From an archaeon (GTDB lineage: Archaea; Aenigmatarchaeota; Aenigmatarchaeia; Aenigmatarchaeales; JACQIB01): a stretch of DNA of 64,000 bases. Position numbers and translations under genes: made by a program. The stretch is from assembly GCA_035291225.1 (NCBI GenBank), contig DATDSO010000004.1, positions 41,298-105,297 on the forward strand. The letters run 5' to 3'. Each line of letters starts with the position of its first letter. Within the stretch, counting starts at the first letter, position 1. The notes beneath the pieces are model-generated. The model worked only from the letters and a program-made list of their open reading frames with translations, was not told the DNA's origin and ran no database searches. Below, piece by piece: positions 2-45,043 of this stretch.

Positions 2-772
2 CCAGCAGAAATTATTGAGCTGCTGAGAAAAATGCGACATGATGGGCGGCCTGCAGGAAAAGCAATTGAAGTTTTTGTTGCGCCATACCGCACAGATATT
101 CTGCACCCGATTGATTTGGTTGAGGAAGTTGCGATTGCTTATGGATATGGAAACTTTCAGCCAGAGATTCCGAATGTCGCAACTATTGGAGAGGAAACGC
201 AGAAAACTATTTTCTCGCGCAAGCTCGCGGAAATTTGTGTTGGGCTGGGCTTGCAGGAAATTCAAAGTTTGCATTTGGGAAATGAAAAAATTCTTGCTGA
301 GAAAATGCTTCTCACTGGAAAAAATAATTTTGTGAAAGTTCTGAATTCTGTAAATGCGGATTATGACACAATTAGGAATTCGCTTATTCCGAATTTGCTG
401 AAAGTTCTTTCTGAAAATACTCATTATGAATTTCCGCAAAATCTTTTTGAGATTGGAGAGGTTTATGAAAATGCGAATGGAGAGCCGGTTGAGAAAAATA
501 ATTTGGGAATTGTTTTCTGCCACGCGGGCGCGGAGTTCAATGAGGCAAAGTCTAGCGTTGAAGCTTTGTTCAGGCTTTTGGGAAAAACTATTTCTGTTGA
601 GCCTATAGAACATCCAAGCTTTATTGAGAGCCGTGTGGGGAAAATTATTTGCAATGGAAAAGAAGTTGGCTTACTCGGGGAAATTCATCCGCAGGCTCTT
701 GTGAATTTCGGATTGGAGCTGCCGGTTGTGGCGGTTGAGATTGAGGTTGGGAAAATGGCGGAAGTTATTTAA
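2..772 (+). CDS. pheT: Phenylalanine--tRNA ligase beta subunit, C-terminal part (5' end lies outside the window)
   Basis: The frame stays open upstream to the window edge. The motifs LVEEVAIAYGYGNF and EIPNVAT are characteristic of the B5 and catalytic-like domains of archaeal PheT. Confidence 0.7.
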   Translation, partial: PAEIIELLRKMRHDGRPAGKAIEVFVAPYRTDILHPIDLVEEVAIAYGYGNFQPEIPNVATIGEETQKTIFSRKLAEICVGLGLQEIQSLHLGNEKILAEKMLLTGKNNFVKVLNSVNADYDTIRNSLIPNLLKVLSENTHYEFPQNLFEIGEVYENANGEPVEKNNLGIVFCHAGAEFNEAKSSVEALFRLLGKTISVEPIEHPSFIESRVGKIICNGKEVGLLGEIHPQALVNFGLELPVVAVEIEVGKMAEVI

Positions 773-795
773 TCTTGAATTATCAATATTTATTA

Positions 796-1307
796 TGGCA
801 GAAACAACGAAACCAAGAATAACTATCGTCGATGAAAACGATAAAATTATAGACCATAAAAATAGAGGCACTGTGAAGAAAGAAGATATTTATCGTGTCT
901 CTGCCCTATGGATTACCAATTCTCGTGGTGAAATTCTTCTTGCAAGACGCCACAGCTCTAAATCTCATCACCCAAGAAAATGGGGTCCTGCTGTTGCTGG
1001 AACTGTTGATGAGGGTGAAACTTATGAAGAAAATATAATCAAAGAAGCTGAAGAAGAATTGGGACTCAAGAACATTAAACCTGAACTCGGTCCAAAAACA
1101 AAAACAGATAACGAATTTCACCACTTCACTCAATGGTATATATTAAATATCGATAAAAATTTAGATGAATTCAAAATACAAGAAGATGAAGTTGAAGAAA
1201 TTAAATGGTTTTCACCAGATGAGTTAAAGAAAGAACTTCAAGAACATCCTGAAGAATTCTTGCCTACAATGAAAAAGTATTTTGAATTATTTTTGCCACG
1301 CCATTAA
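796..1307 (+). CDS. Nudix hydrolase
   Basis: Nudix box GTVDEGETYEENIIKEAEEELGL. The ATG at 796 (MAETTKPRITIVDE) is preferred over the longer ORF that overlaps pheT. Confidence 0.7.
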
Positions 1308-1478
1308 TAATTAAAAATTTATGACTGTGTGTTTTAAGTTGCTCATTTCGTTGTACCCCGCTGCGCTTTCGCCGCTATCTAATTTCTGGCCAATTTTCTT
1401 TTTCCTATTTTCTTCTAGCATAACAAAGTCTGTAGTCTGTAAAACAAACTTTATAAATCCCTTTTGCCAAAAAAACCC

Positions 1479-3236
1479 ATGCGCGCACTTCTCTTATCGG
1501 CCCTTGCTTTCTTCATTCTGGCCTCGCCTGCGTTTGCTTTCAATGTTTTCGGAGCAGAAAGCACTGCAGAGGGGCAGACAGATTTTACAGGGAATGGAGT
1601 TGGAAACATCCAGAACTGGCCGCAGAAAGTTCAGGATATGTGCAAGAAATCTCAGGACAATGCAATTCAAGCGTGCCAGGATTATGTTAAAAGATTGAAC
1701 TTAAATCCTGGCGGCTGGTGGGTTACGAGAATGATTTCCGCAAAAAGTTTTACTCCGAGAACTCCTTCAATAGATGTAAATATTCAGGATATAATTTCCG
1801 GAAAGTTTGACTGCCCGCCGCATGATTTGCTTGTTGATAGCAATGGGCAGCTGGTTACTCAGGTTGCGATTTACAGCGAAATTGTGGATTATGGAAAATC
1901 AACTCAAAAAACCGGAGCAAAGCACATTCCCGGAGGAGATGAAAGCATACAGATTGCGTGCTCTTTTTCATGCTCAGCGTGGCCATGCGCGGCCGGGACA
2001 GATGAGTTCAAAAATTGCGAGGACACTTACTTTGATGATGCGAATGGGGATGGTTTTAGCGATGGAAAAAGAGATCCGGATGGAGGCGGATGGGGAGGGA
2101 GGACAAAGGGAGAAGTTGTTGACAGATTAACTAATGGAGAGCCCAACGAAGCTGGCGGATATTATGCGGGCTTGAGAATTATGTGCGAGGGGGAAGAAAA
2201 AATCCCGTGGTGGAAATTCTGGAAGGATAAAAATTGCAAGCTGAAAGATTGTGTTTCAACAGAGATTCCTTACAGGGGCGTTGCGGGCGCAGATGTTCAA
2301 CCCGGAAGATCAATCATAAGAGTCTGCTGCGGCTGCACTTGCACGAACAAATACATGACTCCAAATTTCAGGAATGACACTTATGTTCCGCTTGGATATG
2401 ATCCGTATGTGAAAATTTTCACTCCGGAGCCAATAGAAACAACTGTTAAAAATGATGTCAATGCTTTAATCGGAACTTTTGAAACACTGCCGCGGCTGCC
2501 CGCTGGAATAAAAAATATTTTCGGGGATGAGAGTGTTGATGTAAATATTGTTGACCCAGCAAAGAAAAATCTTATTTCATTTGGAGTTCAGTTAGTTGAT
2601 GGGAAAATTTCTGGAGCGAAAATAGGAAGCTTGGGAAAAGCCGCAACAATGAGCGTCAATACTGACCACAACACTTTTTACAGAATAAAAGATTCAAAGG
2701 ATCCGGCTGGAATTCTTGTGAAATCAATAAATGACAAGAGCATAAAATATTCTTCTGTTGGAATTGGTGGGGCTGTAAAAGTTGGTTTGGTAAATCTTGC
2801 TGCAGGGGTTTTGGGCGGGGGGCAAACTCCGACTGTAAAAGCTGGAAGCGAAATTTATCTCAATGGCCAGACTGGAGTTGTGAAAGTAAATCCAAATAAT
2901 ATTTTCGTTGTTCAATATACAACTCCAAATCCTCCAAGAGAGATGCCTGTTGTGAATCTTTATGGAAACGCTTATGGTTATACTTACTCGCGGCCGCAGA
3001 ATTTGGTTTCAACAGCGCCGAAATCTTACAGCGTGAGCGCGGGAATTTACAATTATCCGACAAACAATTATGCGAATTATTGGGCAACGCAGAGCTATAG
3101 GCCGAGCGTTCCTTCATTTGGATACACTCCAACAACTGCAATGCAAACTGCTTATGCTGGTTATACTTATGCTGCACGCGGAGGATTTGGCGGAAGCAGT
3201 GGGGCAACTTATTCAACAATTGGTTTTAGAGCGTGA
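1479..3236 (+). CDS. Secreted cysteine-rich protein with Tyr/Gly-rich C-terminal tail
   Basis: N-terminal signal peptide MRALLLSALAFFILASPAFA. Many Cys residues, CCGC and CTC clusters. The C-terminus is low-complexity and rich in Y, G, T and S. No recognisable family. Confidence 0.45.
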   Translation: MRALLLSALAFFILASPAFAFNVFGAESTAEGQTDFTGNGVGNIQNWPQKVQDMCKKSQDNAIQACQDYVKRLNLNPGGWWVTRMISAKSFTPRTPSIDVNIQDIISGKFDCPPHDLLVDSNGQLVTQVAIYSEIVDYGKSTQKTGAKHIPGGDESIQIACSFSCSAWPCAAGTDEFKNCEDTYFDDANGDGFSDGKRDPDGGGWGGRTKGEVVDRLTNGEPNEAGGYYAGLRIMCEGEEKIPWWKFWKDKNCKLKDCVSTEIPYRGVAGADVQPGRSIIRVCCGCTCTNKYMTPNFRNDTYVPLGYDPYVKIFTPEPIETTVKNDVNALIGTFETLPRLPAGIKNIFGDESVDVNIVDPAKKNLISFGVQLVDGKISGAKIGSLGKAATMSVNTDHNTFYRIKDSKDPAGILVKSINDKSIKYSSVGIGGAVKVGLVNLAAGVLGGGQTPTVKAGSEIYLNGQTGVVKVNPNNIFVVQYTTPNPPREMPVVNLYGNAYGYTYSRPQNLVSTAPKSYSVSAGIYNYPTNNYANYWATQSYRPSVPSFGYTPTTAMQTAYAGYTYAARGGFGGSSGATYSTIGFRA

Positions 3237-3706
3237 TTATTATGTCTAATAAAAAAATTGAAGAAAAAGTAGAAGAAGCAAAACCAAAAGCAGGAATTGG
3301 AAAAAAGAAAATCGCTATTTTAGTTTTGGCTTTGATAGTTATAATTATCGTTGGCTATATGTTTATTCCGGCGCCAACAGGAGAAATTATTTTGAATGAA
3401 AAAAATTCTGAGATTTACTCTCTGCTTGTTGCGGGCGGAATAAATGAATCGATGGTTGATGCAACCGCTGAAAGAGTTTTGATTCAGTATGATTTGCCTG
3501 AAGGGATGGAGAAAGAGGCCTCGTGGTATTTTGTGATGGGATCTGCAGCAGCTGCTTCGCCTGAGTCTGAAAAAGTTGTTGCGCAGGCTTTTGTTGGCGA
3601 AAATCCGACTGAAAAAGTTTCTGTGAAAACAAAAGATGTTTTGGATTTGCTTGCTGGCAGGATTAATGATGCGGAGTTTGCAGGGAAGGTTGAGGTTATT
3701 TCCTGA
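3233..3706 (+). CDS. Hypothetical membrane-anchored protein
   Basis: Overlaps the stop of the upstream gene by 4 nt, which suggests co-transcription. One N-terminal TM helix (IAILVLALIVIIIVGYMFI). Confidence 0.4.
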   Translation: MIIMSNKKIEEKVEEAKPKAGIGKKKIAILVLALIVIIIVGYMFIPAPTGEIILNEKNSEIYSLLVAGGINESMVDATAERVLIQYDLPEGMEKEASWYFVMGSAAAASPESEKVVAQAFVGENPTEKVSVKTKDVLDLLAGRINDAEFAGKVEVIS

Positions 3707-4457
3707 AAGCTCCGAAAAGAAAATCCAAAAATCCTTTCCTTTCAACAAATTCTTCTCCCAGCAAATTCGCAGCAAGCCTTTTGAATTCGCGTGAAGCCTT
3801 TGATCGCGGAAATTGAAAAACAACTGGAGATTTCTTGGCAATTGATTTCTGCACATCTATATCTTCAGGAATTTTTGCGATAACAGGATGCTCCAAAAGG
3901 GATCGGATTTCTTTCGTGGTCATTTCATGATTTCTATCTGTGGTCCTGTTCACAACAACCCCCAGAACTGTTTTGTTGTAATTTTCGCAGATTTTTATCG
4001 CCTTCAGTGCATCTGTTACTGCAGGCATTTCCGGATTAGTTACAATTATAATATCATCTGCAATTTCTATCGCAGTCCTAGCTTCCCGTCCCAAGCCCGC
4101 TGCGCCGTCAATAAAAATAAATCCTCTGCGAGGCAAAAGTTTTTCTACAGCGTCCCTGAGTTTTTCAACATCTATTCTTGTTATCGCATTTACAGAAAGG
4201 CTCGCCGGAACCACCCTCACACCGGAGTCGTGGACAAAAATTGTGTCATATATCTCACATTCTCCGGCCAAAAAATCATGAAGTGTTCTCGGATATAGCG
4301 GGATTCCAAAATGCAAGCCCAGATTCGGTGTCGTAACATTTCCGTCTATTACCAAAACGCCGTGTCCGTTCTGTGCAAGAGCAACTGCAAGGTTTGCTGT
4401 TGTGGTGGTTTTTCCTACGCCACCTTTCGCAGAAATGACAGAAATGATGCGAGTCAT
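3696..4457 (-). CDS. minD: MinD/ParA-family P-loop ATPase
   Basis: Deviant Walker A SAKGGVGKTTTTANLA. The MTRIISV start at 4457 is preferred over the longer ORF that extends to 4568. Confidence 0.8.
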   Translation of the reverse strand: MTRIISVISAKGGVGKTTTTANLAVALAQNGHGVLVIDGNVTTPNLGLHFGIPLYPRTLHDFLAGECEIYDTIFVHDSGVRVVPASLSVNAITRIDVEKLRDAVEKLLPRRGFIFIDGAAGLGREARTAIEIADDIIIVTNPEMPAVTDALKAIKICENYNKTVLGVVVNRTTDRNHEMTTKEIRSLLEHPVIAKIPEDIDVQKSIAKKSPVVFQFPRSKASREFKRLAANLLGEEFVERKGFLDFLFGAFRK

Positions 4458-4494
4458 ATTTCTGATTGGAATTGTGAGAATAAAAAGATTAATT

Positions 4495-5253
4495 TTAGTT
4501 GTTTCTTTCTCTGGAATTGACCACCACAAGAGTTTTTTGTATTTCTCTCGGCACGGACTTCCTTTCAAAATATGCTCCTCCGGTGGAAAAAAGCAGGCCC
4601 GATATCAACGCAATTGAGTAAGAGAATATAAGAGTGTTAGAGAGCGGCAAGAGGAAGTATTGTAATGCTGCCGAGTACATTCCGCTTGCATCTGGCAAAG
4701 GCAAAAATGTTTCAAAGAAAGGAATTGCTAAAATTGGGAGGCTCGCTATAATAAGAGATATACCCGCATATTTAGATATCTCAAAGATTTTCTTTTTGTT
4801 AAAATAAAGCACAGTTGCTCCTATAAGAGAAAACAAGAATGAAAATATCGAGGCCACCATGAAAATTCCGTTTCCATATTGGCTTACAGCCAATTCAAAA
4901 ACTGAAGTTTTTTCTGAAGGGAAATTTCTGTAATATCCCTGTGAGAAAAGCTCTTCGCCGAAATAAGTTCCTATGTTCTGCTGGGTTGACTGCTTTATTT
5001 TCTCGGAATAGAATTTGAATATATAGCCGCTTGTGCTTTTTCTCTCTATGAACTGCTTTCCATTAGATTCCTCTATCAAGTTTTCTATTTTATCCGGCGG
5101 CTGATTTGCCTGATAGGCTTTTTGCAGAGATTCTATTGCATTTGCCTTAACAACTTCTGGCTGTGTAAAATAGAAAAGCGAGGTTGAAATAACAAAAATG
5201 CTAAGCGAAGCTATCAATATGAAAACTCCAAAAACTGTCTTTAATTCTGACAT
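4495..5253 (-). CDS. Hypothetical polytopic membrane protein
   Basis: Several hydrophobic helices. Lies immediately upstream of minD on the same strand. Confidence 0.4.
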   Translation of the reverse strand: MSELKTVFGVFILIASLSIFVISTSLFYFTQPEVVKANAIESLQKAYQANQPPDKIENLIEESNGKQFIERKSTSGYIFKFYSEKIKQSTQQNIGTYFGEELFSQGYYRNFPSEKTSVFELAVSQYGNGIFMVASIFSFLFSLIGATVLYFNKKKIFEISKYAGISLIIASLPILAIPFFETFLPLPDASGMYSAALQYFLLPLSNTLIFSYSIALISGLLFSTGGAYFERKSVPREIQKTLVVVNSRERNN

Positions 5254-5315
5254 AGTATCTGGAATATACTATGCATAGGTGGTATTTAAAGCTTCTTAAC
5301 TTAGTGGTGGTGAAG

Positions 5316-5448
5316 TGGCGCGCCCGACGGAATTTGAATCCGCGACCTCTTGCTTTCATCTCTTCCAATCTTGGATTAGAAGGTTCGCCTAATCATCAAG
5401 CGCTCTATTTGCTTAACCAAATTAGTTTCCAAGCTGAGCTACGGGCGC
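5316..5448 (-). tRNA. tRNA gene with two putative introns (D-loop and anticodon region) and an encoded CCA; anticodon not assignable by eye
   Basis: - **Acceptor stem:** the minus strand reads GCGCCCG-TA-GCTC-AGCTTGG... and closes with ...GCGGA-TTCAAAT-TCCGT-CGGGCGC-G-CCA. The acceptor stem GCGCCCG/CGGGCGC is perfect.
- **T arm and D stem:** the T-loop is the canonical TTCAAAT and the D-stem is GCTC/GAGC.
- **Length accounting:** the gene is 130 nt, which equals 74 nt mature plus a 21-nt insert in the D-loop plus a 35-nt insert in the anticodon arm. Confidence 0.6.
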
Positions 5449-5487
5449 ACAGCTCTAATAGAAGAACATAACTTATAAATTTGGATT

Positions 5488-6018
5488 TTGAAGATGTTTT
5501 GTGGTGAAATGAAAATTAGAGAAGCTTTGGAAAGAGATTTGGATTATCTTTTTGAAATAGACAAAAAATCTTACGGCGACGATGGTTGGAGCAAAGAGTT
5601 CATGCTGGCGAGGTTTAAGTCGTTTCCAAACGAATTTTTTGTGGCGGAAGAAAATGGAAAACCTACTGGCTTTATTATTTTTGAAATTTTGAGCGGGAAT
5701 GAAACTCCCGCGGGATTTTCTAATATGAAATTGTATAAGCCTCTAGCAGGAAAATGGATGCACATAATAGGATTTACAACCAAGACAAATTACAAAGATA
5801 AAGCAGCCGATTCTAAACTACTTCTGGCAGCAGAAAATATTGGAAAGCGCGAAGGGTGCATAGAAGCATTTGTGCCGCTAAGCAAAAATCATCCTTTTGA
5901 AGAGAATGGAGCATTTAAGTTCTGGAAAGAAAATGGTTATAAAAAATCGGGAGAGATAGATTGGACATCCGAAATAGGCAGTTCTGTTAGCTGCTATTTT
6001 TACAGAAAGAAATTGTGA
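5488..6018 (+). CDS. GNAT-family N-acetyltransferase (probable)
   Basis: The layout resembles RimI. The start could instead be at 5509 (MKIREALERDLDYL). A GNAT core-like segment runs GFIIFEIL...IGFTT. Confidence 0.45.
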   Translation: MKMFCGEMKIREALERDLDYLFEIDKKSYGDDGWSKEFMLARFKSFPNEFFVAEENGKPTGFIIFEILSGNETPAGFSNMKLYKPLAGKWMHIIGFTTKTNYKDKAADSKLLLAAENIGKREGCIEAFVPLSKNHPFEENGAFKFWKENGYKKSGEIDWTSEIGSSVSCYFYRKKL

Positions 6019-6022
6019 TTAA

Positions 6023-9000
6023 ATGGACTTCATCAAAATAGAAAAAAAGTGGCAGGCTGCTTGGGAGAAAGCGAAAATATTTGAGTCCAGCGAGAAATCA
6101 AAGAAGAAAAAATTTTACTGCCTTGAAATGTTCCCATATCCGTCCGGCTCGGGCCTGCATATGGGGCACACGAAAAATTATGTGATTGGGGATATTTTCA
6201 GCCGCTTCAAAAGAATGAAAGGTTTCAATGTTCTTTATCCAATGGGCTATGATGCCTTTGGCTTGCCGGCTGAAAATGCCGCAATAAAAGCCGGAGTTGA
6301 TCCGGAAAAATACACAAAAGAAATAATAGCAAACTTCATCAAGCAGCAGAAAGCAATTGGGCTTAGCTATGATTGGCCGAGAACAATTGCGACATGCGAG
6401 CCTGAATATTACAAATGGAACCAGTTTTTCTTTTTGAAATTTTTTGAGAGAGGCTTGGTCTACAGGAAAAAAGCTGCTGTAAATTGGTGCCCGAAGTGCC
6501 AAACTGTTTTGGCAAACGAGCAGGTTCAGGGAGGAGTTTGCTGGAGGCACACTGACACGCAGGTTGAAATAAAACAGCTTGAGCAGTGGTTTGTCAAAAC
6601 AACAAATTATGCGGATGAGCTGCTTGAGGGAATCAAAGAATTGCAGTGGCCTGAAAGAATTAAAATTATGCAGGAAAATTGGATTGGAAAAAGTTTTGGG
6701 ACTGAAATTGATTTTGAAATTGCTCATGATAGAGAGAAAAAGAAAATTCTTATTGGAACAAGGAACAAAGCAAAAATTTCTATGATAAAAAACGCTTTCG
6801 CAAGTTTTCCTGAAATTGAATTTATTTCTCTTGAGGATTTTCCGAATCTCGATGACTCTGCTTTAAAAGAGGGAAATGATTTCAGGGAAAATTCCCATAA
6901 GAAAGCCGAATTCTATTTCAAGAAGACAGGTATTCGGACTATTTCAACAGATCAAATCCAATGGGTGGAAAAATATCCTAAAGAAAATGGATTTATTGTG
7001 CATGTAAGAAAATTGGCAAATCCAAACTCTCCGCGCGCTTCTGATGAGGAGGTTGGAAAATGGATAGAAGAATTTGTTGAAAAACATGGAGATTCAAGAG
7101 CTAATTTTCATTTTGCTATTTCGTATGCTGATGAGAATGGCATAAAAGATTTTGTCAGCATACAAAAGGAATATATTTTACAGAAGGAAAAGTCAAAAAA
7201 ATCCAACGATGGATACGCCTTTGATAAATATATGAAGGATTCGAACACTGGGGAGTTTAGAATTGAACAGCCTGAGCATATTGCCTTTAGCAAATTTCAT
7301 GATTTTGTTAGAGAGGAATTCGTTCCAAGCGTTTTTCCTAATCTTAAGAAATGGCCGATTTTCACAACGCGCCCTGACACAATTTTCGGAGTTACTTTCA
7401 TGGTTGTTTCTGCGCAGCATCCAAGATTAATGGAACTTGTAACGCAGAAACAGAAAATTGAAGTTGAAAACTTTTTGAAAAAAATAAAATCAACAAGCGA
7501 GAAGGAAACCGAAGAATTAAACAAAGAAGGGGCATTTACAGGAAGCTATGCAATAAATCCTGCGACCGGAGAAAAAATTCCAATCTATGCTGGAAATTTT
7601 GTGATTGCTGATTATGGCTCTGGAATGGTTATGGCTGTGCCTGCCCATGACCAGAGAGATTTTGAATTTGCGAAGAAGTATGGGCTGCCAATCAAGCGCG
7701 TCATCTCTCCAAGCAAACAGAGTTGCATTATTGTTCATGGTTCAAACTCTTCTGAGGCAGCAGCAAAAAAAGGCGCGCTAGAAAATCTGAGGCATTGGAA
7801 GCCGTGGTTAAAGAAAAATCTGGAGAAAAACGGAATAAAAACATCTAATGAATTATATCCCGAAGACTGGCTTCCAGATTATGATAAATGGAAAAGTGTT
7901 TTTGAAAAAAATACAATCGATGAAAATACCATTCTTGTTGGTCATAGCGCCGGAACTGCATTCTTGCTGCGATGGTTAAGTGAGAATAAGAAAAAGGTTA
8001 ACAAACTAATATTGGTGGCGCCATCAGTCATTAAAAAGAATGACAAGTACCTGCGGCTAAGCAAATTAAAGGATTTTAGTTATGACTCATCATTGAAAAA
8101 CTACTTCAATAAATTGGTGGTATTCTATTCAGACAGCGATGCAGAACACATCATAGAAAGTGCAAAACAGATCCATACTAGGCTTGGTGGTGATTTGGTA
8201 CAAATCAAAGGAAAGGGGCATTTCATCTATGAAGATATGGGTACCGAAGAATTTCCCGAATTGCTTGAGGTAATACTTATTCTCAATGAAGCGTTTACCG
8301 GAGATGGAGTTTTAGTAAATTCTGGAAATTTTTCAGGAATGAACAATCGTGAGGCAATCGAAGAAATCACAAAATATTTGGAAAGCAAAAATCTTGGAAA
8401 GAAAGTTGTAAATTATAAACTGCGCGACTGGTTGATTTCGCGCCAGAGATATTGGGGCACGCCGATTCCAATAATTTATTGCGGGAAGTGCGGAATTGTC
8501 CCTGTGCCTGAAAAAGACTTGCCAATTCTCCTGCCGAAGGATGTGAAGTTTGGGCAAGGAAATCCTTTGCTCACAAGCGAGAAATTTGTGAAAACAAAAT
8601 GCCCGAAATGCAAATCTCCCGCCAAAAGAGAAACTGACACAATGGACACTTTCTTTGACAGCAGCTGGTATTTTTTGAGATACTGCGACAGCAAAAATTC
8701 CAAAGTTCCGTTTGAAAAGAAAAAAGCAGAATACTGGATGCCGGTTGACCAATATATTGGCGGCGCAGAGCACGCGTGCATGCACTTAATCTACGCGAGA
8801 TTTTTCACAAAAGTTTTGCGGGATATGGGAATGCTGAAATTTGGAGAGCCGTTTCCGAAATTGTTCAACCAAGGAATGCTGCATAAAGATGGATTTGTAA
8901 TGAGCAAGAGCCGGGGAAATGTTGTGTCCCCAGATGAGGTTTCAAAAAAATACGGAATTGATGCGGCAAGATTTTTCCTAATGTTTGCGGCCGCGCCTGA

Positions 9001-9631
9001 CAGAGACACTGAATGGACTGAGGATGGAATAGAAAGTGGAAGCCGCGTTGTGAGCAAGCTGATTTCCATCGGAAAGAAAAAATTCGGCAGGGATGATTTG
9101 AAACTTCTAAATAAATTGCACAGAGCCATAATTTTTGTTGAAGAAAATTTGGAAAAGTTTCAATACAATTTTGCTTTGGTAAAGCTAAGTGATTTGCTTG
9201 GCAGATTTGAAAAAGCAGAATACAGCAAAAAATCTTTTGAAACTTTGCTTTTGCTTTTCAGCCCTTTCATGCCTCATATTTGCGAGGAGCTATGGCATAA
9301 GATTGGAAACAAAAGTTTTATTTCAGAAGAAATCTGGCCTGCGGCTGAAAAGAAATTTATCAGCGAGGAGCTTGAGCAGCAGGAGAAAGCTCTTGAAAAA
9401 ACAATAGAAGATGTGAGGCATATTCTGAAAATTGTTGGAAAATCTGCGAAGAAGATTTACATTTATGCAATACCAAAAGAAGTTGAAGTTTACAAAGAAA
9501 TGTCTAATGATTTGAAAAAAGAATTTTCCTGCGAGGTAAATGTTTTTGCTGTTAATGATCCGAAGAAATATGACCCGGAAAACAAATCCCAAAAGGCAAA
9601 GCCAGGCAAGCCTGGGATTTTGGTGGAGTAG
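6023..9631 (+). CDS. leuS: Leucine--tRNA ligase, bacterial type, with two large inserted domains
   Basis: - **Bacterial-type signatures:** the HMGH signature (PYPSGSGLHMGHTKNYVIGD), TTRPDTIFG at the start of the editing domain, and the anticodon-binding region KLRDWLISRQRYWGTPIP.
- **Length:** 1202 aa, against roughly 860 aa for typical bacterial-type LeuRS.
- **Extra segments:** at approximately residues 240-435 and 568-757. Confidence 0.9.
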   Translation: MDFIKIEKKWQAAWEKAKIFESSEKSKKKKFYCLEMFPYPSGSGLHMGHTKNYVIGDIFSRFKRMKGFNVLYPMGYDAFGLPAENAAIKAGVDPEKYTKEIIANFIKQQKAIGLSYDWPRTIATCEPEYYKWNQFFFLKFFERGLVYRKKAAVNWCPKCQTVLANEQVQGGVCWRHTDTQVEIKQLEQWFVKTTNYADELLEGIKELQWPERIKIMQENWIGKSFGTEIDFEIAHDREKKKILIGTRNKAKISMIKNAFASFPEIEFISLEDFPNLDDSALKEGNDFRENSHKKAEFYFKKTGIRTISTDQIQWVEKYPKENGFIVHVRKLANPNSPRASDEEVGKWIEEFVEKHGDSRANFHFAISYADENGIKDFVSIQKEYILQKEKSKKSNDGYAFDKYMKDSNTGEFRIEQPEHIAFSKFHDFVREEFVPSVFPNLKKWPIFTTRPDTIFGVTFMVVSAQHPRLMELVTQKQKIEVENFLKKIKSTSEKETEELNKEGAFTGSYAINPATGEKIPIYAGNFVIADYGSGMVMAVPAHDQRDFEFAKKYGLPIKRVISPSKQSCIIVHGSNSSEAAAKKGALENLRHWKPWLKKNLEKNGIKTSNELYPEDWLPDYDKWKSVFEKNTIDENTILVGHSAGTAFLLRWLSENKKKVNKLILVAPSVIKKNDKYLRLSKLKDFSYDSSLKNYFNKLVVFYSDSDAEHIIESAKQIHTRLGGDLVQIKGKGHFIYEDMGTEEFPELLEVILILNEAFTGDGVLVNSGNFSGMNNREAIEEITKYLESKNLGKKVVNYKLRDWLISRQRYWGTPIPIIYCGKCGIVPVPEKDLPILLPKDVKFGQGNPLLTSEKFVKTKCPKCKSPAKRETDTMDTFFDSSWYFLRYCDSKNSKVPFEKKKAEYWMPVDQYIGGAEHACMHLIYARFFTKVLRDMGMLKFGEPFPKLFNQGMLHKDGFVMSKSRGNVVSPDEVSKKYGIDAARFFLMFAAAPDRDTEWTEDGIESGSRVVSKLISIGKKKFGRDDLKLLNKLHRAIIFVEENLEKFQYNFALVKLSDLLGRFEKAEYSKKSFETLLLLFSPFMPHICEELWHKIGNKSFISEEIWPAAEKKFISEELEQQEKALEKTIEDVRHILKIVGKSAKKIYIYAIPKEVEVYKEMSNDLKKEFSCEVNVFAVNDPKKYDPENKSQKAKPGKPGILVE

Positions 9632-9634
9632 AAA

Positions 9635-10405
9635 TTAAGAGTGAAGCATCCACTCAGCAACTGGAGATTCAAAATACTTGTCTCTTGGAACAAAGCCAAC
9701 TTTTCTGAAAGCTTCTAATGCTGGAATATTTTGCTCGGCAACATAAACAAATACTTCAGATGCTCCTGATTCCTCAAACAAATATTTCGTAATTCCGTGT
9801 GCTGTAGATGTGGCATGCCCTCGGTTTCTTTTCTCTGGGTGCGTGAAAAGATTGTAAAGCCTGAAAATTTTGTTCAGTTCCATATTTACATTTATGAAAG
9901 AGGCTGCGCCATCATCTTCAAATGAAAAGACCGCAGGATTTTCTCTTGTGCTTCTGATTAAAGCCATTCTTCTTGCGTAGTCTGGATGATGGTGGAACAG
10001 CCTATCTGCCATTAAAATTTCGTCATCTGTTAGACTTCTGTAAGCTCTTGTCCTTTGTTTTGGTTCGTAATCAGAAACACTTTGCGCAACAAGCTCTTGT
10101 TTTATCAAGCCATCTGTATCTAGAACCTGTTTTGCGACATCAGCATATTGTGCTTGGACCGTGCACCTTAATCCGGGTTCTCTCACCCGTTCCAATAATT
10201 CTTTGCAAGCTTCTGAGTCAACTGCCATAACATGAACTCGGTTTCCCAATTCCGGACCCTGCCTCCAATAAGCCAGAACTCCAGTAACTTCCCCGCCTTT
10301 TTCTGAAGTGTGAATATCTACATCTCTTCTTCCGGCTAAATAGAGAAGTGGCATGTTAGCATGCTCGTCTCTACGCAAAAATCTCAAAGCCTTCTCGTTA
10401 GTCAT
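9635..10405 (-). CDS. GNAT-fold protein, compositionally atypical (GC-richer)
   Basis: The C-terminal part (HATSTAHGITKYLFEESGASEVFVYVAEQNIPALEAFRKVGF) looks like a GNAT core. Codon usage is visibly GC-richer (CGN Arg codons) than the flanking genes. Confidence 0.4.
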   Translation of the reverse strand: MTNEKALRFLRRDEHANMPLLYLAGRRDVDIHTSEKGGEVTGVLAYWRQGPELGNRVHVMAVDSEACKELLERVREPGLRCTVQAQYADVAKQVLDTDGLIKQELVAQSVSDYEPKQRTRAYRSLTDDEILMADRLFHHHPDYARRMALIRSTRENPAVFSFEDDGAASFINVNMELNKIFRLYNLFTHPEKRNRGHATSTAHGITKYLFEESGASEVFVYVAEQNIPALEAFRKVGFVPRDKYFESPVAEWMLHS

Positions 10406-10439
10406 AATAACTATTGAATAGAAAAGTATTAAAGGCTTT

Positions 10440-11237
10440 CTATTTTAGATTTTTCTTGAACCATTTTATTGTTTCTTCAAGAAAGATTTTTTTCTCCTTT
10501 GGGCTGCCATATAGATTGTGATCTGCGAATGGGACAATCTTTAACTTTTTCGGCTTGTTAGCGGCCTTGAATAAAGCTCTGACATTTTTAATGTCAACAT
10601 ACCTATCTTTCCCGCCGCTGATTATGAAAATCGGCTTCTTTATTTTCTTAATTTCTCTAGTCATGTTGAGCGATTTTATATCTTCTATAAGGAGCTTTCC
10701 TATTCTCTGTCTTCTAATATCAGTCGGTGTAAATCTTTTTACTGTCATAAAGCCGGTTTTCTCTAATTCTATTTTCCAATTTTCGCCGCAGTTTCTTGAA
10801 AAAACATATTGAGCATGCTTGTCTAATATTATGTATGGGCTTGTTAATTGAAATGCCTTTATTCTTTTATCAGCAAGAAGGATTGTCGGAGTCGCGCCAA
10901 AGCTTGTTGAGATTAAGCCTAAATTATTTTTATCTATATTTTGTTTTAGGAAAAAATCAATTGCATATTTTAGGTCATTGACTTCTTGCGCGACTCTGAC
11001 ATCAACATAGTCCCCATCAGACTCTCCATGGCCGCCAAAATCAAAACGAAAAACAGAAAATCCCGCGGAAAATAGTTTCTTTGCAAGAGAGTCATACAGC
11101 CCATATTCATGCTTATCTGTGCGGGGCATTAAGCCGTGAACTAAAATTATTGCCGGCGCGCGCTTTTTCTGCGAAGCAATAAGACCGCAGAGCTTCTGGC
11201 CTTTAGAATTTCTAAACCAAACTTTCTGCTCCTCCAC
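10440..11237 (-). CDS. Alpha/beta-fold hydrolase
   Basis: HG motif ILVHGLMPR, a nucleophile-elbow-like ISTSFGA, and a conserved Asp/His region near the C-terminus. Confidence 0.6.
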   Translation of the reverse strand: MEEQKVWFRNSKGQKLCGLIASQKKRAPAIILVHGLMPRTDKHEYGLYDSLAKKLFSAGFSVFRFDFGGHGESDGDYVDVRVAQEVNDLKYAIDFFLKQNIDKNNLGLISTSFGATPTILLADKRIKAFQLTSPYIILDKHAQYVFSRNCGENWKIELEKTGFMTVKRFTPTDIRRQRIGKLLIEDIKSLNMTREIKKIKKPIFIISGGKDRYVDIKNVRALFKAANKPKKLKIVPFADHNLYGSPKEKKIFLEETIKWFKKNLK

Positions 11238-11248
11238 AAATCTCAGCC

Positions 11249-42650: not shown

Positions 42651-43823
42651 ATGCAAGAAGATTTTTACATTAGCCCAGAGCCGGAAAAATTTGCAAGAAT
42701 TAGCAAGTGGGGAGTTCCTGCGCTTTCGCCGACGGTTAATTATGGAATGGCTTTGTTTGAGGGAATGAGCATAATTGCCAGAAAAAAAGGGAGCGGCTAC
42801 AGGCTTTCGTTCTTTCATCCTATGCTGAATTATGAGCGCATGAAGTTTGGCGTTGATGAGCTTGGAATGAATGCGCCTGTTTATCCGATGGAGAGGCACA
42901 TCAAAACAGTTTTCCAAATCTGCGCGCTGAATGGATGGAACAAAAAAATCAGCCTGAATGGAAAAGAAATTTCTATTGAAAGAGCTAATGGAGAAAAATA
43001 TGCGCGAATTTATGTGCGACCTGTTGTTTACTCAACAACAAATTCAATCGGGCTTGGGGCAAAAATGGATTTCACAATAATGCACGCGCTCCTGCCTTTC
43101 GGGCAGTATTTGAAAATGGAAAATCCTGGTGGGATAAAAACTATTTTGTATCCGAAACCGCGCAGCATTCCATTTGCGAATTTCAAAATGATTTCCAATT
43201 ATCCCATCAGTATAAGCGCGCGGGGGCTTTTGAATTCTTTCAATGAGAAAAACAAATATAATGCAGAGGAAGCGGTTTTTGTGAATGAGGCTGGGGTTCT
43301 TACTGAAGGGAGCGGGGAAAATATTCTTTTGCTTAAAGATAATGAATTGATTACTCCGCCTGTTAGTGCGGGAGCTTTACCTGGGACAACTCTGAGAATC
43401 GTTTCAAAAATTGCAGAATCTCTTGGAGTGAGATTTTCTTTCAGAACTTTTTTCCCGAAAGATATTGAGAAAGCTGAAACGATGTTTTTTACTGGGAATG
43501 CAGCAGGCATGATTCCTATTGCATCAATTGCAGAAATTGATGAAAAGTTTTCTGTGAAAAAATTGCATGAAACAGAAATTGGCGGGAGAGGAGAGCTTTT
43601 CAAGAAAATAAATTCTCTGTATGAAAGCGTTGTTTTTGGAGATGACTCATTCGGAGATTTTTCTGTTTACTTTGATGATTGGATGAGTGAGGAAGAAGCG
43701 GACGAGCTTGAGAAGGAAAAGCGGGATTCTTTTTCTTTGAACATGAAAATAAATCCGCCGGAGAAATGGGAGAAACAAAAAGAATCTGTTTTGAAAGAGT
43801 TGGGGATTGGGAAGTTTTTGTGA
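42651..43823 (+). CDS. Class IV PLP-dependent aminotransferase (branched-chain aminotransferase-like) with acidic C-terminal extension
   Basis: N-terminal pattern W..P..S.....GMALFEGMSI followed by the core fold-type IV region. About 90 extra C-terminal residues. Confidence 0.55.
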   Translation: MQEDFYISPEPEKFARISKWGVPALSPTVNYGMALFEGMSIIARKKGSGYRLSFFHPMLNYERMKFGVDELGMNAPVYPMERHIKTVFQICALNGWNKKISLNGKEISIERANGEKYARIYVRPVVYSTTNSIGLGAKMDFTIMHALLPFGQYLKMENPGGIKTILYPKPRSIPFANFKMISNYPISISARGLLNSFNEKNKYNAEEAVFVNEAGVLTEGSGENILLLKDNELITPPVSAGALPGTTLRIVSKIAESLGVRFSFRTFFPKDIEKAETMFFTGNAAGMIPIASIAEIDEKFSVKKLHETEIGGRGELFKKINSLYESVVFGDDSFGDFSVYFDDWMSEEEADELEKEKRDSFSLNMKINPPEKWEKQKESVLKELGIGKFL

Positions 43824-43864
43824 TTAGATGTTTGGTTTTTAAATTTCCTTTTACAATAGTTTTA

Positions 43865-45043
43865 ATGAAGTTTGTAATTTTCCATGGAGCCTACGGGAAT
43901 CCTGAAAAGAATTGGTTCCCAGAATTAAAGGAAAGGCTTGAAATGTTTGGACAGGAAGTTATTGCTCCAAAATTTCCTGTTGAGGATTGGAATGAAGTTT
44001 CTAAGGCAGGACACGATTTCAATCCGAGAAATCAGACTCTTGAAAGCTGGATGAAGGTTTTTGATAAAGTAAAGAGCGATTTCAAGAAAGGAGAAAAGCT
44101 TTGCTTTATCGGGCACTCAATGTCGCCTGTTTTTATTTTACGTGTTGTTGAAAAATACGACCTTAAGCTTGATAGCGCGATTTTCGTTTCACCGTTTCTT
44201 GGACCTCTCGGGAATCCACGCTTTGATGTTGTAAACAAAAGCTTTTACAAAACAGATTTTGATTTTGAAAAGCTTAGGAAGCTCGTACCTGTTTCGTATG
44301 TGCTTTACTCTGAAAATGATCCCTACGTCCACGAAAAGAATTCAAAAGAGTTTGCTGAAAAAATGCATAGCTCTGTAATCTTTGTCAGAAAGGCCGGCCA
44401 TATGAACAGCGAGGTTAATTTGAACGAGTTCCCTCTTGTTCTTGAGCTTTGTAAATCGCGGCTTGATTTGTCTCTTTATCAGAAATATCTCGCACATAGA
44501 AGAGAACTTTACTCTGTTCCATATATCAATGGAAAAGGTGAAGAAATTATTTTTTTGGATCCGAAGGAGGTTTTCGAGGAGGGGGTTTTTCATTTTAGAA
44601 ATTTGAGGCAGGAAGGCTTTTGCACATTTCTTACATCACTGAAATTCTGGGATACTCAGTCAAAGTATATGGAAGAGGCGCGAAAAGCCGCAATGAGAAT
44701 AAAGCTCATAAGAGTTTTCATTATTGATAAAATATCAGATTTGAAACGATCAAATATCTTAAAACAAATAATACTTGATATGGAAGCTGGTATCAATGTT
44801 TATTTTTGCATACTTAGCCAGATAGAAGGTAAAACCGGAGAGATCGACTTTGGTATTTGGGATAATGATTATCTTTGCGCCGTGCATTATGATAAGCGTG
44901 GTGGCATAAACGAAGTTAAGCTAACAAGCCGCGCTAAAGATATCGAAGAGGCTTTAAAGTGGAAAAATATTATTCTAAAAAAAGCTGTGCGCATCAAAAG
45001 CGAAAAAGATATTAAAATATTTGTCGAAGATTTTCATCCTTAA
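43865..45043 (+). CDS. RBBP9/YdeN-type serine hydrolase fused to an uncharacterised C-terminal domain
   Basis: VIFHGAYGNPEKNWFPEL, a GHSMS nucleophile elbow, then ENDPYV (Asp) and AGHMN (His) at RBBP9-like spacing. A C-terminal domain of about 190 aa has no recognised motif. Confidence 0.6.
   Translation: MKFVIFHGAYGNPEKNWFPELKERLEMFGQEVIAPKFPVEDWNEVSKAGHDFNPRNQTLESWMKVFDKVKSDFKKGEKLCFIGHSMSPVFILRVVEKYDLKLDSAIFVSPFLGPLGNPRFDVVNKSFYKTDFDFEKLRKLVPVSYVLYSENDPYVHEKNSKEFAEKMHSSVIFVRKAGHMNSEVNLNEFPLVLELCKSRLDLSLYQKYLAHRRELYSVPYINGKGEEIIFLDPKEVFEEGVFHFRNLRQEGFCTFLTSLKFWDTQSKYMEEARKAAMRIKLIRVFIIDKISDLKRSNILKQIILDMEAGINVYFCILSQIEGKTGEIDFGIWDNDYLCAVHYDKRGGINEVKLTSRAKDIEEALKWKNIILKKAVRIKSEKDIKIFVEDFHP

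Follow-up and report, generated by a model that had tools for sequence, protein, structure and literature searches.

The 64,000-nucleotide stretch of archaeal DNA analysed here (contig DATDSO010000004.1; hereafter the window) encodes a leucyl-tRNA synthetase (LeuRS) of bacterial type in which two further enzyme-like domains are embedded (Table 1). The gene matches the TIGR00396 leuS_bact model with 909.2 bits (cutoff 548.4) and aligns with the LeuRS of Thermus thermophilus (Tt; 1h3n, E = 4.5e-219), in agreement with a first-pass annotation that had described a bacterial-type LeuRS of 1202 amino acids (aa). Its carrier is a DPANN-type archaeon. Archaeal genes elsewhere in the window include RPA, an AlaRS with DHHA1, an ArcS-related DUF5591 protein and an archaeosine-type TGT (ArcTGT) that has both a C2 and a PUA domain, and the closest named homologues of the LeuRS belong to Nanoarchaeota, Pacearchaeota and Woesearchaeota.

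Table 1. Features of the LeuRS locus and its flanks. Positions are those of the window; aa numbers are residues of the window LeuRS; L001 is the insert-free sister contig described in the text.
Feature	Position (nt)	Strand	Remarks
LeuRS gene, complete	6023-9631	+	1202 aa plus stop, ATG start; bacterial type
N-terminal catalytic segment, aa 1-233	6023-6721	+	Aligned to Tt LeuRS 9-236
HIGH motif (HMGH), aa 46-49	6158-6169		
NWIG, aa 219-222			
Insert 1 (site A), Ham1/ITPase-fold module, aa 234-439	6722-7339	+	NCBIfam, AF2 fold, residue conservation
Central CP1 editing domain, aa 440-563	7340-7711	+	Aligned to Tt LeuRS 243-363
Editing motif TTRPDT, aa 448-453	7364-7381		
Editing motif HDQRD, aa 542-546	7646-7660		
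Insert 2 (site B), PF06821 serine hydrolase, aa 564-756, domain proper about 568-752	7712-8290	+	Pfam, YdeN/RBBP9 homology
CP1 end, rest of catalytic domain, anticodon-binding domain and C-terminal domain, aa 757-1202	8291-9628	+	Aligned to Tt LeuRS 373-578 and 627-821
SRQRYWG, aa 806-812			
KMSKS-type motif VMSKS, aa 959-963	8897-8911		
Membrane open reading frame	4495-5253		In block absent from L001
GNAT	5488-6018		In block absent from L001
Second GNAT, FR47-like	9635-10405		In block absent from L001
S33/S9-like alpha/beta hydrolase	10440-11237		In block absent from L001

All the signature motifs of the synthetase (HIGH, KMSKS and those for editing) are in place. Its alignment to 1h3n breaks twice (query 6-233 with Tt 9-236, 444-562 with Tt 243-363, and 754-954 with Tt 373-578), and PF13603, the Pfam model of the LeuRS editing domain, is matched with 195.8 bits in three stretches, as befits an editing domain that is interrupted twice; the two observations together place both inserts inside CP1. 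The same picture emerges from motif spacing. The interval from NWIG to TTRPDT, the enlargement of which had been picked out at first pass, measures 229 aa in the window LeuRS versus nearly always 23 in 42 insert-free homologues, and that from HDxxD to SRQRYWG measures 264 aa versus 77 to 85. The leucine-specific domain (Tt about 578-627), which is found in T. thermophilus and Escherichia coli LeuRS and is not universal, has no counterpart in the window protein or elsewhere in its clade, the whole of which has a spacing of 152 to 157 aa, mostly 154, from SRQRYWG to KMSKS. An AlphaFold model of the whole protein (pLDDT 75.4, pTM 0.61) matched bacterial LeuRS structures with TM-scores of 0.61 to 0.75, normalised to the target.

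To set the exact boundaries of the inserts, we compared the window LeuRS codon by codon with a sister gene on a public contig, L001, which is about 92% identical to the window in DNA through the LeuRS and its neighbours. The sister protein (P0002) has 815 aa, is 92-94% identical to the window LeuRS, and lacks both inserts. Insert 1 lies where CP1 begins and amounts to 206 codons placed cleanly between I233 and N440. Insert 2 stands in place of a 12-residue loop of the sister protein, which is located on the surface, immediately follows the aspartates of the editing site and falls between Tt residues 363 and 373. The net gain of 206 plus 181 residues equals the 387 by which the two proteins differ in length. 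The first-pass annotation had located the insertions at about nt 6740-7330 and 7724-8294, close to the boundaries in Table 1, but had taken the second to replace the leucyl-specific loop; that insertion is indeed present, and its site is in CP1. The junctions read I/AHDRE...SVFP/N for insert 1 and P/SKQSC...ILNE/A for insert 2, and we saw neither target-site duplications nor clear microhomology at them in the comparison with L001. The GC content at third codon positions (GC3) is 0.286 in insert 1 versus 0.37-0.46 in the LeuRS core. Given that the insert state differs between lineages that are about 92% identical in DNA, the change is recent; and as L001 has the spacing of the other insert-free homologues, a gain in the window lineage is more parsimonious than two precise deletions.

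Presence and absence between such similar contigs, and the low GC3 of insert 1, resemble what mobile DNA would leave behind, and one might suspect a chimeric assembly, an intein, an RNA-level intron or some other removable element that the mature protein would lack. We assign this explanation a negligible probability. A protein of identical length from the same 90% identity cluster occurs on 16 independent contigs (NCBI, JGI and ENA), which reach a length of 873,710 bp, and hundreds of related architectures exist, which rules out the assembly chimera that the first-pass annotation had named as a possible undoing of its proposal. Inteins are excluded, as had been supposed from the boundaries, by the lack of any Hint-family Pfam match and of the Cys/Ser/Thr...His-Asn boundary residues. 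The inserts are in frame and carry conserved catalytic residues, there is no visible target-site duplication, and the same arrangement is found in bacteria, which lack the archaeal bulge-helix-bulge splicing. One short public contig, a 1069-bp ENA sequence encoding 206 aa (P0122), is probably a chimeric assembly: it is 100% identical to the window from about LeuRS residue 216 through the first 140 or so residues of insert 1 and then switches, in mid-domain, to a class-II LysRS-like sequence (PF00152), a tail that we looked for in the window and did not find. An apparent split LeuRS, in which a protein seemed to begin with a hydrolase and a Ham1 module and to lack the N-terminal half of the synthetase (P0246), was likewise rejected as an intermediate, since its locus (L004) holds one continuous open reading frame, 1254 aa as listed, in which the gene caller took an internal ATG. 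Calls of that kind also affect P0395 and P0399.

Insert 1 had been read as a Ham1/ITPase-like module, and the profiles and the predicted fold both bear this out for what is a divergent member. It matches the NCBIfam XTP/dITP diphosphatase model NF011397 (E = 5e-11, 42 bits, cutoff 234), and it scores 26 bits against TIGR00042 (cutoff 145). A profile built from insert 1 and three free-standing homologues finds 389 proteins among 1.84 billion representatives; the ~200-aa tail of these matches passes the cutoff of PF01725 (Ham1p_like), as do the close relatives P0248, P0250 and P0356. Modelled alone with AlphaFold2 (AF2), the module is predicted to fold on its own (pLDDT 78.6, pTM 0.74), and a Foldseek search of the PDB with this model returned Ham1/RdgB/ITPase structures as all of its top 31 matches (E down to 1e-10, TM-score up to 0.76), with the related Maf fold coming after them. 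The low pLDDT of insert 1 in the whole-protein run stems from an alignment in which only two near-identical rows covered it, the three free Ham1 homologues being excluded; the order of secondary-structure elements agrees between the two models, and for this module the separate model is the more trustworthy. The Ham1 core residues T246, N248, K251, E283, N290, K294, D310 and D341 are conserved, and with them the T-x-N-x-x-K, E, N...K and catalytic Asp motifs of the family. T246, N248, K251, N290, K294 and D310 are invariant in the subfamily and in canonical members, and E283 is conserved within the subfamily, canonical members having an acidic residue at or adjacent to that position. Insert 1 is a divergent Ham1-fold module that probably acts on a nucleotide, not necessarily ITP or XTP. 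Among its structural matches are the Ham1-like subunits of the KomBC (Kongming) anti-phage complex (9v0g, 8zsg, 9xvc), in which Ham1 folds can be nucleotide-binding parts of a defence system.

Insert 2 belongs to the YdeN/RBBP9 family of serine hydrolases, as first proposed. PF06821 matches it with 61.3 bits alone and 56.2 bits in the whole protein (gathering cutoff 22), and its solved relatives are Bacillus subtilis YdeN (1uxo, E = 1.4e-10) and human RBBP9 (2qs9 and 9fcr, E about 5e-4). In the whole-protein model it is confidently predicted to form a separate globular alpha/beta domain, with block means of pLDDT over 10 residues mostly between 72 and 93. The expected Ser-Asp-His triad is present as Ser642 (GHSAG), Asp706 (SDSD) and His733 (GKGHF), which align with the triad of RBBP9 (S75, D138 and H165). 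Among the embedded copies in related LeuRS, the triad is retained in the great majority: at site A the serine is kept in 61 of 62, the acid in 61 of 62 and the histidine in 54 of 62, and at site B the triad is complete in 6 of 6. It is also conserved in free copies of the hydrolase. In human RBBP9, S75 is catalytic, the enzyme cleaves alpha-aminoacyl substrates and requires a free alpha-amine, and Glu108 is the alpha-amine anchor that gives aminopeptidase specificity (PMC8866121). A second, more distant PF06821 hydrolase lies elsewhere in the window (43766-45043, + strand, 51.5 bits), joined to a C-terminal region of about 200 aa with a weak match to DUF6879; its real start is probably an internal MKFVIFHG. 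The genome thus encodes a further YdeN-like hydrolase, as part of a different fusion.

Both inserts are near full-length copies of free-standing proteins of about 190 to 205 aa, and were captured from free genes. Insert 1 matches the full length of free proteins of 204-212 aa (P0121, P0123 and P0124) with 47-72% identity, and insert 2 spans residues 4-187 of a free 188-aa protein (P0126) with 77% identity. Genuine free genes for the hydrolase occur on contigs of up to 668 kb, the named ones from Nanoarchaeota and Patescibacteria. Neither insert has a start codon of its own, so in the window both are made only as part of LeuRS. Capture has happened more than once at the same place: the window's site-B module is 77% identical to free proteins and only 42% identical to the site-B module of another LeuRS (P0007), the backbone of which is 59-77% identical to that of the window, a mismatch showing that the site was filled independently in the two lineages. 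We set aside one further comparison, the 81% identity of the module of P0003 to a supposedly free protein, P0155, which does not begin with Met and could be a piece of a LeuRS itself; the polyphyly of the hydrolase modules rests on the other comparisons.

A search of LeuRS homologues for the same insertions showed the window to be one instance of a common pattern. Inserts at site A, site B or both are carried by 79 of the 121 closest LeuRS, in which the backbone spacing is nearly constant and only these two positions vary; the remaining 42 have no insert. The most frequent arrangement is a PF06821 hydrolase at site A only (50 proteins), and a further 16, including one with two hydrolases at A, combine a hydrolase at A with another domain at B. 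Six have another domain at B only, three have the hydrolase at B only (one of them, P0080, also with a PF10706 module there), two have a HAD-like domain at A with or without a hydrolase at B, and two, the window protein and a 99% identical twin, have Ham1 at A and the hydrolase at B. Besides the hydrolase, site B can be occupied by NUDIX, by a PF10706 nucleotidyltransferase, or by a module of about 100 aa ('...IIEKSLPKEK...', in P0014, P0025, P0087, P0104 and P0120) with no Pfam match, and one protein (P0023) has a third hydrolase in its anticodon-binding region. On neighbour-joining (NJ) trees, occupancy changed at least 17 times at site A and at least 22 times at site B, and the hydrolase switched between free and embedded states at least 18 times; these NJ and parsimony counts are rough. 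We had considered that NUDIX and Ham1 might be interchangeable alternatives reflecting functional convergence, which is ruled out by their joint presence in P0247, P0250, L005 and L008. The NUDIX subfamily was no guide to function either, as its matches (RppH/NudH, NudB, MutT) are weak, below cutoff and not diagnostic.

The public names of insert-bearing LeuRS tend to follow the inserts or to be generic. P0395 (HLE07051.1), P0096, P0052 and P0008 go under such names as 'non-canonical purine NTP pyrophosphatase', 'HAD-IA family hydrolase', 'Isoleucine--tRNA ligase' and 'class I tRNA ligase family protein', and the NCBI pipeline calls one member of the window's own 90% cluster 'non-canonical purine NTP pyrophosphatase [archaeon]'.

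The pattern extends to bacteria of the Candidate Phyla Radiation (CPR) and to other synthetases. In species-representative genomes the Ham1-subfamily profile found nine loci, eight in CPR/Patescibacteria and one labelled Methylomirabilis, and all nine lie inside LeuRS. They occupy three positions there, namely site A, a point some 25 residues upstream, and one after the CxxC that follows SRQRYWG. In CPR LeuRS the usual partner of the Ham1 module is NUDIX at site B. Between the window and bacterial LeuRS the Ham1 modules are 53% identical versus 36-51% for the backbone, and the module is thus as conserved as the synthetase that carries it, or more so, across the divide between archaea and CPR. 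The locus labelled Candidatus Methylomirabilis sp. (L013; DYJS01000001.1, frame 2-4804) encodes a LeuRS frame that spans no fewer than 1601 aa and contains five modules (HAD, canonical Ham1, NUDIX, Ham1 subfamily and PF10706 nucleotidyltransferase); as all other Ham1-subfamily matches are from CPR, this label may reflect mis-binning. At L004, in a bacterial gene context, an alpha/beta hydrolase and a Ham1-subfamily module stand in tandem at site A. A metagenome scan for the insert-2 subfamily recovered 42 full-length copies: 26 free proteins, 15 modules of LeuRS (12 at site A and 3 at site B) and one fusion to the N-terminus of a dimeric GlyRS (TIGR00389, 235.6 bits; L017, Ga0172364_10067994, frame containing 1178-1729); none of the 42 was found in any other protein. 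In this GlyRS an extension of about 57 aa precedes the hydrolase, and the contig ends inside the synthetase. In the representative library, a protein of 1202 aa (P0356) is a ValRS with HAD_2 and Ham1 at its N-terminus and a truncated C-terminus. Outside synthetases the modules occur joined to each other, as NUDIX with PF06821 in P0226 and P0233 and as PF06821 with Ham1 in P0248. Embedded copies were found only in synthetases, namely LeuRS, GlyRS and ValRS. In DPANN and CPR alike, a small set of families (PF06821, Ham1, NUDIX, HAD-like and PF10706) recurs, either nested in LeuRS, where at least four positions are used, or joined to GlyRS or ValRS.

How might this distribution be explained? We lean, by a modest degree, toward the view that the modules are active hydrolases that were captured from free genes into the CP1 loops of LeuRS and selected to work beside the synthetase. 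That every embedded copy was found in an aminoacyl-tRNA synthetase is what suggests both activity and selection for this company. The serine hydrolase would then cleave an aminoacyl ester or anhydride, such as a mis-made aminoacyl-tRNA or an aminoacyl-adenylate, which is the most economical chemistry; its eukaryotic relative RBBP9 cleaves alpha-aminoacyl substrates (PMC8866121). The Ham1-like module would cleave a compound of nucleoside-triphosphate type, for instance a non-canonical NTP or a by-product derived from the adenylate, again the most economical chemistry. The first-pass annotation had offered extra aminoacyl-ester proofreading and nucleotide sanitation as possible roles; the idea gains indirect support from the restriction of the embedded copies found to synthetases and from the substrates of RBBP9. 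While architecture, folds, residue conservation, recency and distribution rest on direct observation, catalytic activity, substrates and coupling to LeuRS are inferences.

Several observations weigh against this view. The mix of modules (hydrolase, NUDIX, Ham1, HAD-like, nucleotidyltransferase and the ~100-aa module) is heterogeneous and looks like a grab-bag, not like one pathway; most hydrolase copies are free (26 of 42), so tethering is not required for function; and occupancy of site B is nearly devoid of phylogenetic signal, with 22 changes versus 25.6 for shuffled labels, as would also be expected if gain and loss were under weak selection. The host-range samples are limited by the search patterns and are not independent events, and the whole-protein model, with its pTM of 0.61, is unreliable for inter-domain geometry. 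By our mapping, the position of RBBP9 Glu108 appears to be occupied by Leu in insert 2, in a variable and poorly aligned loop, and the specificity of RBBP9 should therefore not be carried over to it. As for insert 1, the Pfam search proposed at first pass succeeded for the hydrolase but gave no match of this module to PF01725 at E <= 1, and its NCBIfam scores are below the equivalog cutoffs. The C-terminal SHR, a base-recognition motif linked to ITP/XTP specificity, is absent from the alignment of the Ham1 subfamily, in which only the canonical P0256 has it, and insert 1 need not be an ITPase, nor even catalytic.

If the first three of these points are given full weight, the modules may be no more than housekeeping enzymes parked in the insertion-tolerant loops of LeuRS. 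In tiny, promoter-poor genomes, genes that land in frame would be kept through co-expression with an essential gene, each module acting on its own cellular substrates with no coupling to the synthetase. The unrelated families in heterogeneous assortment, the frequent gain and loss, the preponderance of free hydrolases, the fusions of modules to one another outside synthetases and the untouched LeuRS motifs would all follow. We consider this a serious rival, though less likely than coupling. All the embedded copies found are in synthetases, which make up a small fraction of a proteome, and the Ham1 subfamily sits at three or more positions of LeuRS, which points to selection for the host rather than to one permissive site. 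Coupling is favoured over parking because the families occupy several positions in LeuRS and also occur as terminal fusions on GlyRS and ValRS, to which the tolerance of CP1 loops is irrelevant.

The divergence of insert 1 raises a different prospect, that one or both inserts, and the Ham1 fold in particular, are non-catalytic and merely bind a nucleotide or other metabolite, regulating or decorating LeuRS. The missing SHR motif and Pfam match, the nucleotide-binding KomBC components among the fold matches, and the loss of the catalytic histidine from 8 of the 62 site-A hydrolases would be in keeping with such a role. It strikes us as very improbable, however, as the Ham1 metal/phosphate-binding core and catalytic Asp are conserved, the triad of the window hydrolase is intact and is kept in most embedded copies, and conservation of the Ham1 module at or above the level of the backbone across archaea and CPR fits a retained active site.

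The neighbourhood of the window LeuRS bears on a further alternative. Beside the inserts, two gene-sized blocks that flank the gene (about 4464-6015 and 9638-11247) are absent from L001, making four presence/absence differences within 8 kb, and these blocks encode two GNATs and an S33/S9-like hydrolase (Table 1). The modules could be imagined as target-tethered detoxification enzymes that inactivate inhibitors of the synthetase, for example aminoacyl-adenylate mimics, either by hydrolysis (serine hydrolase, NUDIX, Ham1 and HAD-like modules) or by modification (the PF10706 nucleotidyltransferase and the neighbouring GNATs), giving in-cis immunity to episymbionts living on antibiotic-producing hosts. 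A GNAT, MccE, and a serine peptidase, MccF, detoxify aminoacyl-nucleotide antibiotics. The families concerned are classic ones for the hydrolysis or modification of small molecules, including an aminoglycoside-2''-adenylyltransferase-like domain, they are fused to several different synthetases, and NCBIfam holds a model for an IleRS with a GNAT domain (NF040702). We nevertheless regard this as improbable: the case is one of analogy throughout, Ham1 and NUDIX are more simply seen as nucleotide house-cleaning enzymes, and a conserved GNAT/hydrolase island around LeuRS is unsupported, as the neighbours at another insert-bearing locus (L003) are ordinary archaeal housekeeping genes.

There is also a tRNA-like element nearby. 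Although neither ARAGORN nor Rfam at its gathering thresholds predicted a tRNA anywhere in the 64 kb, a sub-threshold match to RF00005 (19.4 bits, E = 0.15) lies just upstream of LeuRS at 5319-5403 on the minus strand. It carries a long extra segment, and its counterpart in L001 (about 849-1039) is in the opposite orientation. It may represent a tRNA that is unusual or contains an intron, or else a mere remnant.

Returning to selected coupling as the preferred reading, a broader and more speculative form of it, which we hold to be rather doubtful at present, is that the PF06821 proteins of about 190 aa found in CPR and DPANN make up, together with partners of the Ham1, NUDIX and HAD-like families, a modular accessory system of synthetases that has gone unrecognised. 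In that event the serine hydrolase would represent a new class of aminoacyl-ester or aminoacyl-adenylate hydrolase, serving, whether free or built in, as a trans- or cis-editing factor or inactivating synthetase inhibitors, and the task of the nucleotide hydrolases would be to remove, at the synthetase, by-products or analogues of nucleotides. Together they would give ultra-small symbionts a form of translational quality control, or of self-protection, that is new and peculiar to them.

Few proteins are as conserved as synthetases, and it is unusual for whole unrelated enzymes to be nested in the editing domain of one. Here this has recurred many times, at several positions and from a small repertoire of hydrolases, in DPANN and CPR, the two great radiations of ultra-small symbionts. 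Lineages about 92% identical, with and without the inserts, offer a natural experiment on domain insertion into an essential enzyme, and the two CP1 loops are candidate permissive sites for protein engineering. The restriction of embedded copies to synthetases provides a functional lead for the YdeN/RBBP9-like hydrolases that are common in CPR and DPANN, and for the divergent Ham1 subfamily. On the practical side, inserts of this kind add spurious length and columns to the LeuRS marker-gene alignments used in phylogenomics.

The first-pass annotation was not aware of a description of this architecture, and full-text searches turned up no published account, for DPANN or CPR, of PF06821, Ham1, NUDIX or HAD domains nested in LeuRS or in any other synthetase; the window protein is, however, not unique, being one case of a large DPANN/CPR family. 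Sequences of the window type are already in public databases, partly mis-named by pipelines. Compared with the bacterial-type LeuRS of T. thermophilus (1h3n) and E. coli (4aq7), the window enzyme has the same scaffold, HIGH and KMSKS motifs, CP1 motifs, and anticodon-binding and C-terminal domains, but it is encoded by an archaeon, lacks the leucine-specific domain, and adds 387 residues as two enzyme domains nested in CP1. Its Ham1 module shares the fold of Ham1/RdgB/ITPA proteins (PF01725, TIGR00042; TM-score up to 0.76), their N-terminal motifs and their catalytic Asp. Those proteins, however, are free dimeric enzymes with SHR, whereas the module is embedded in LeuRS, lacks SHR and scores far below the profile cutoffs. 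Insert 2 has the minimal alpha/beta-hydrolase size of YdeN and RBBP9 (about 190 aa) together with their GHSxG nucleophile, Asp and GHF His; it differs in being nested in a synthetase and, by alignment mapping through a poorly aligned loop, in not conserving the Glu108 anchor.

Inteins are likewise in-frame, gene-sized insertions in essential conserved proteins with a patchy distribution among close relatives, but the window inserts contain no Hint/splicing domain or homing endonuclease and are ordinary metabolic folds that the mature protein retains. That a synthetase should have domains inserted or appended is in itself well known, from CP1 itself to the ProRS INS domain and YbaK, AlaX, and IleRS with a GNAT. 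The last of these (NF040702, an N-acetyltransferase domain-containing IleRS), described at the level of annotation only, is also a class-Ia editing synthetase with an extra domain that modifies small molecules, although synthetase, enzyme family and layout are all different from those of the window LeuRS. In the ProRS INS editing domain with YbaK and ProX, and in the AlaRS editing domain with AlaX, the same hydrolase family is found either free or attached to a synthetase, and these are the closest conceptual precedent for a free hydrolase becoming a nested synthetase domain. There, the folds are dedicated to aminoacyl-tRNA deacylation and editing has been demonstrated, whereas the window clade uses alpha/beta serine hydrolase, Ham1, NUDIX and HAD folds, whose tRNA-related activity is putative, nested inside an editing domain that already exists and in variable combinations and positions. 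What is new here is the nesting of whole metabolic-type enzymes in the editing domain, recurrently and in combination.

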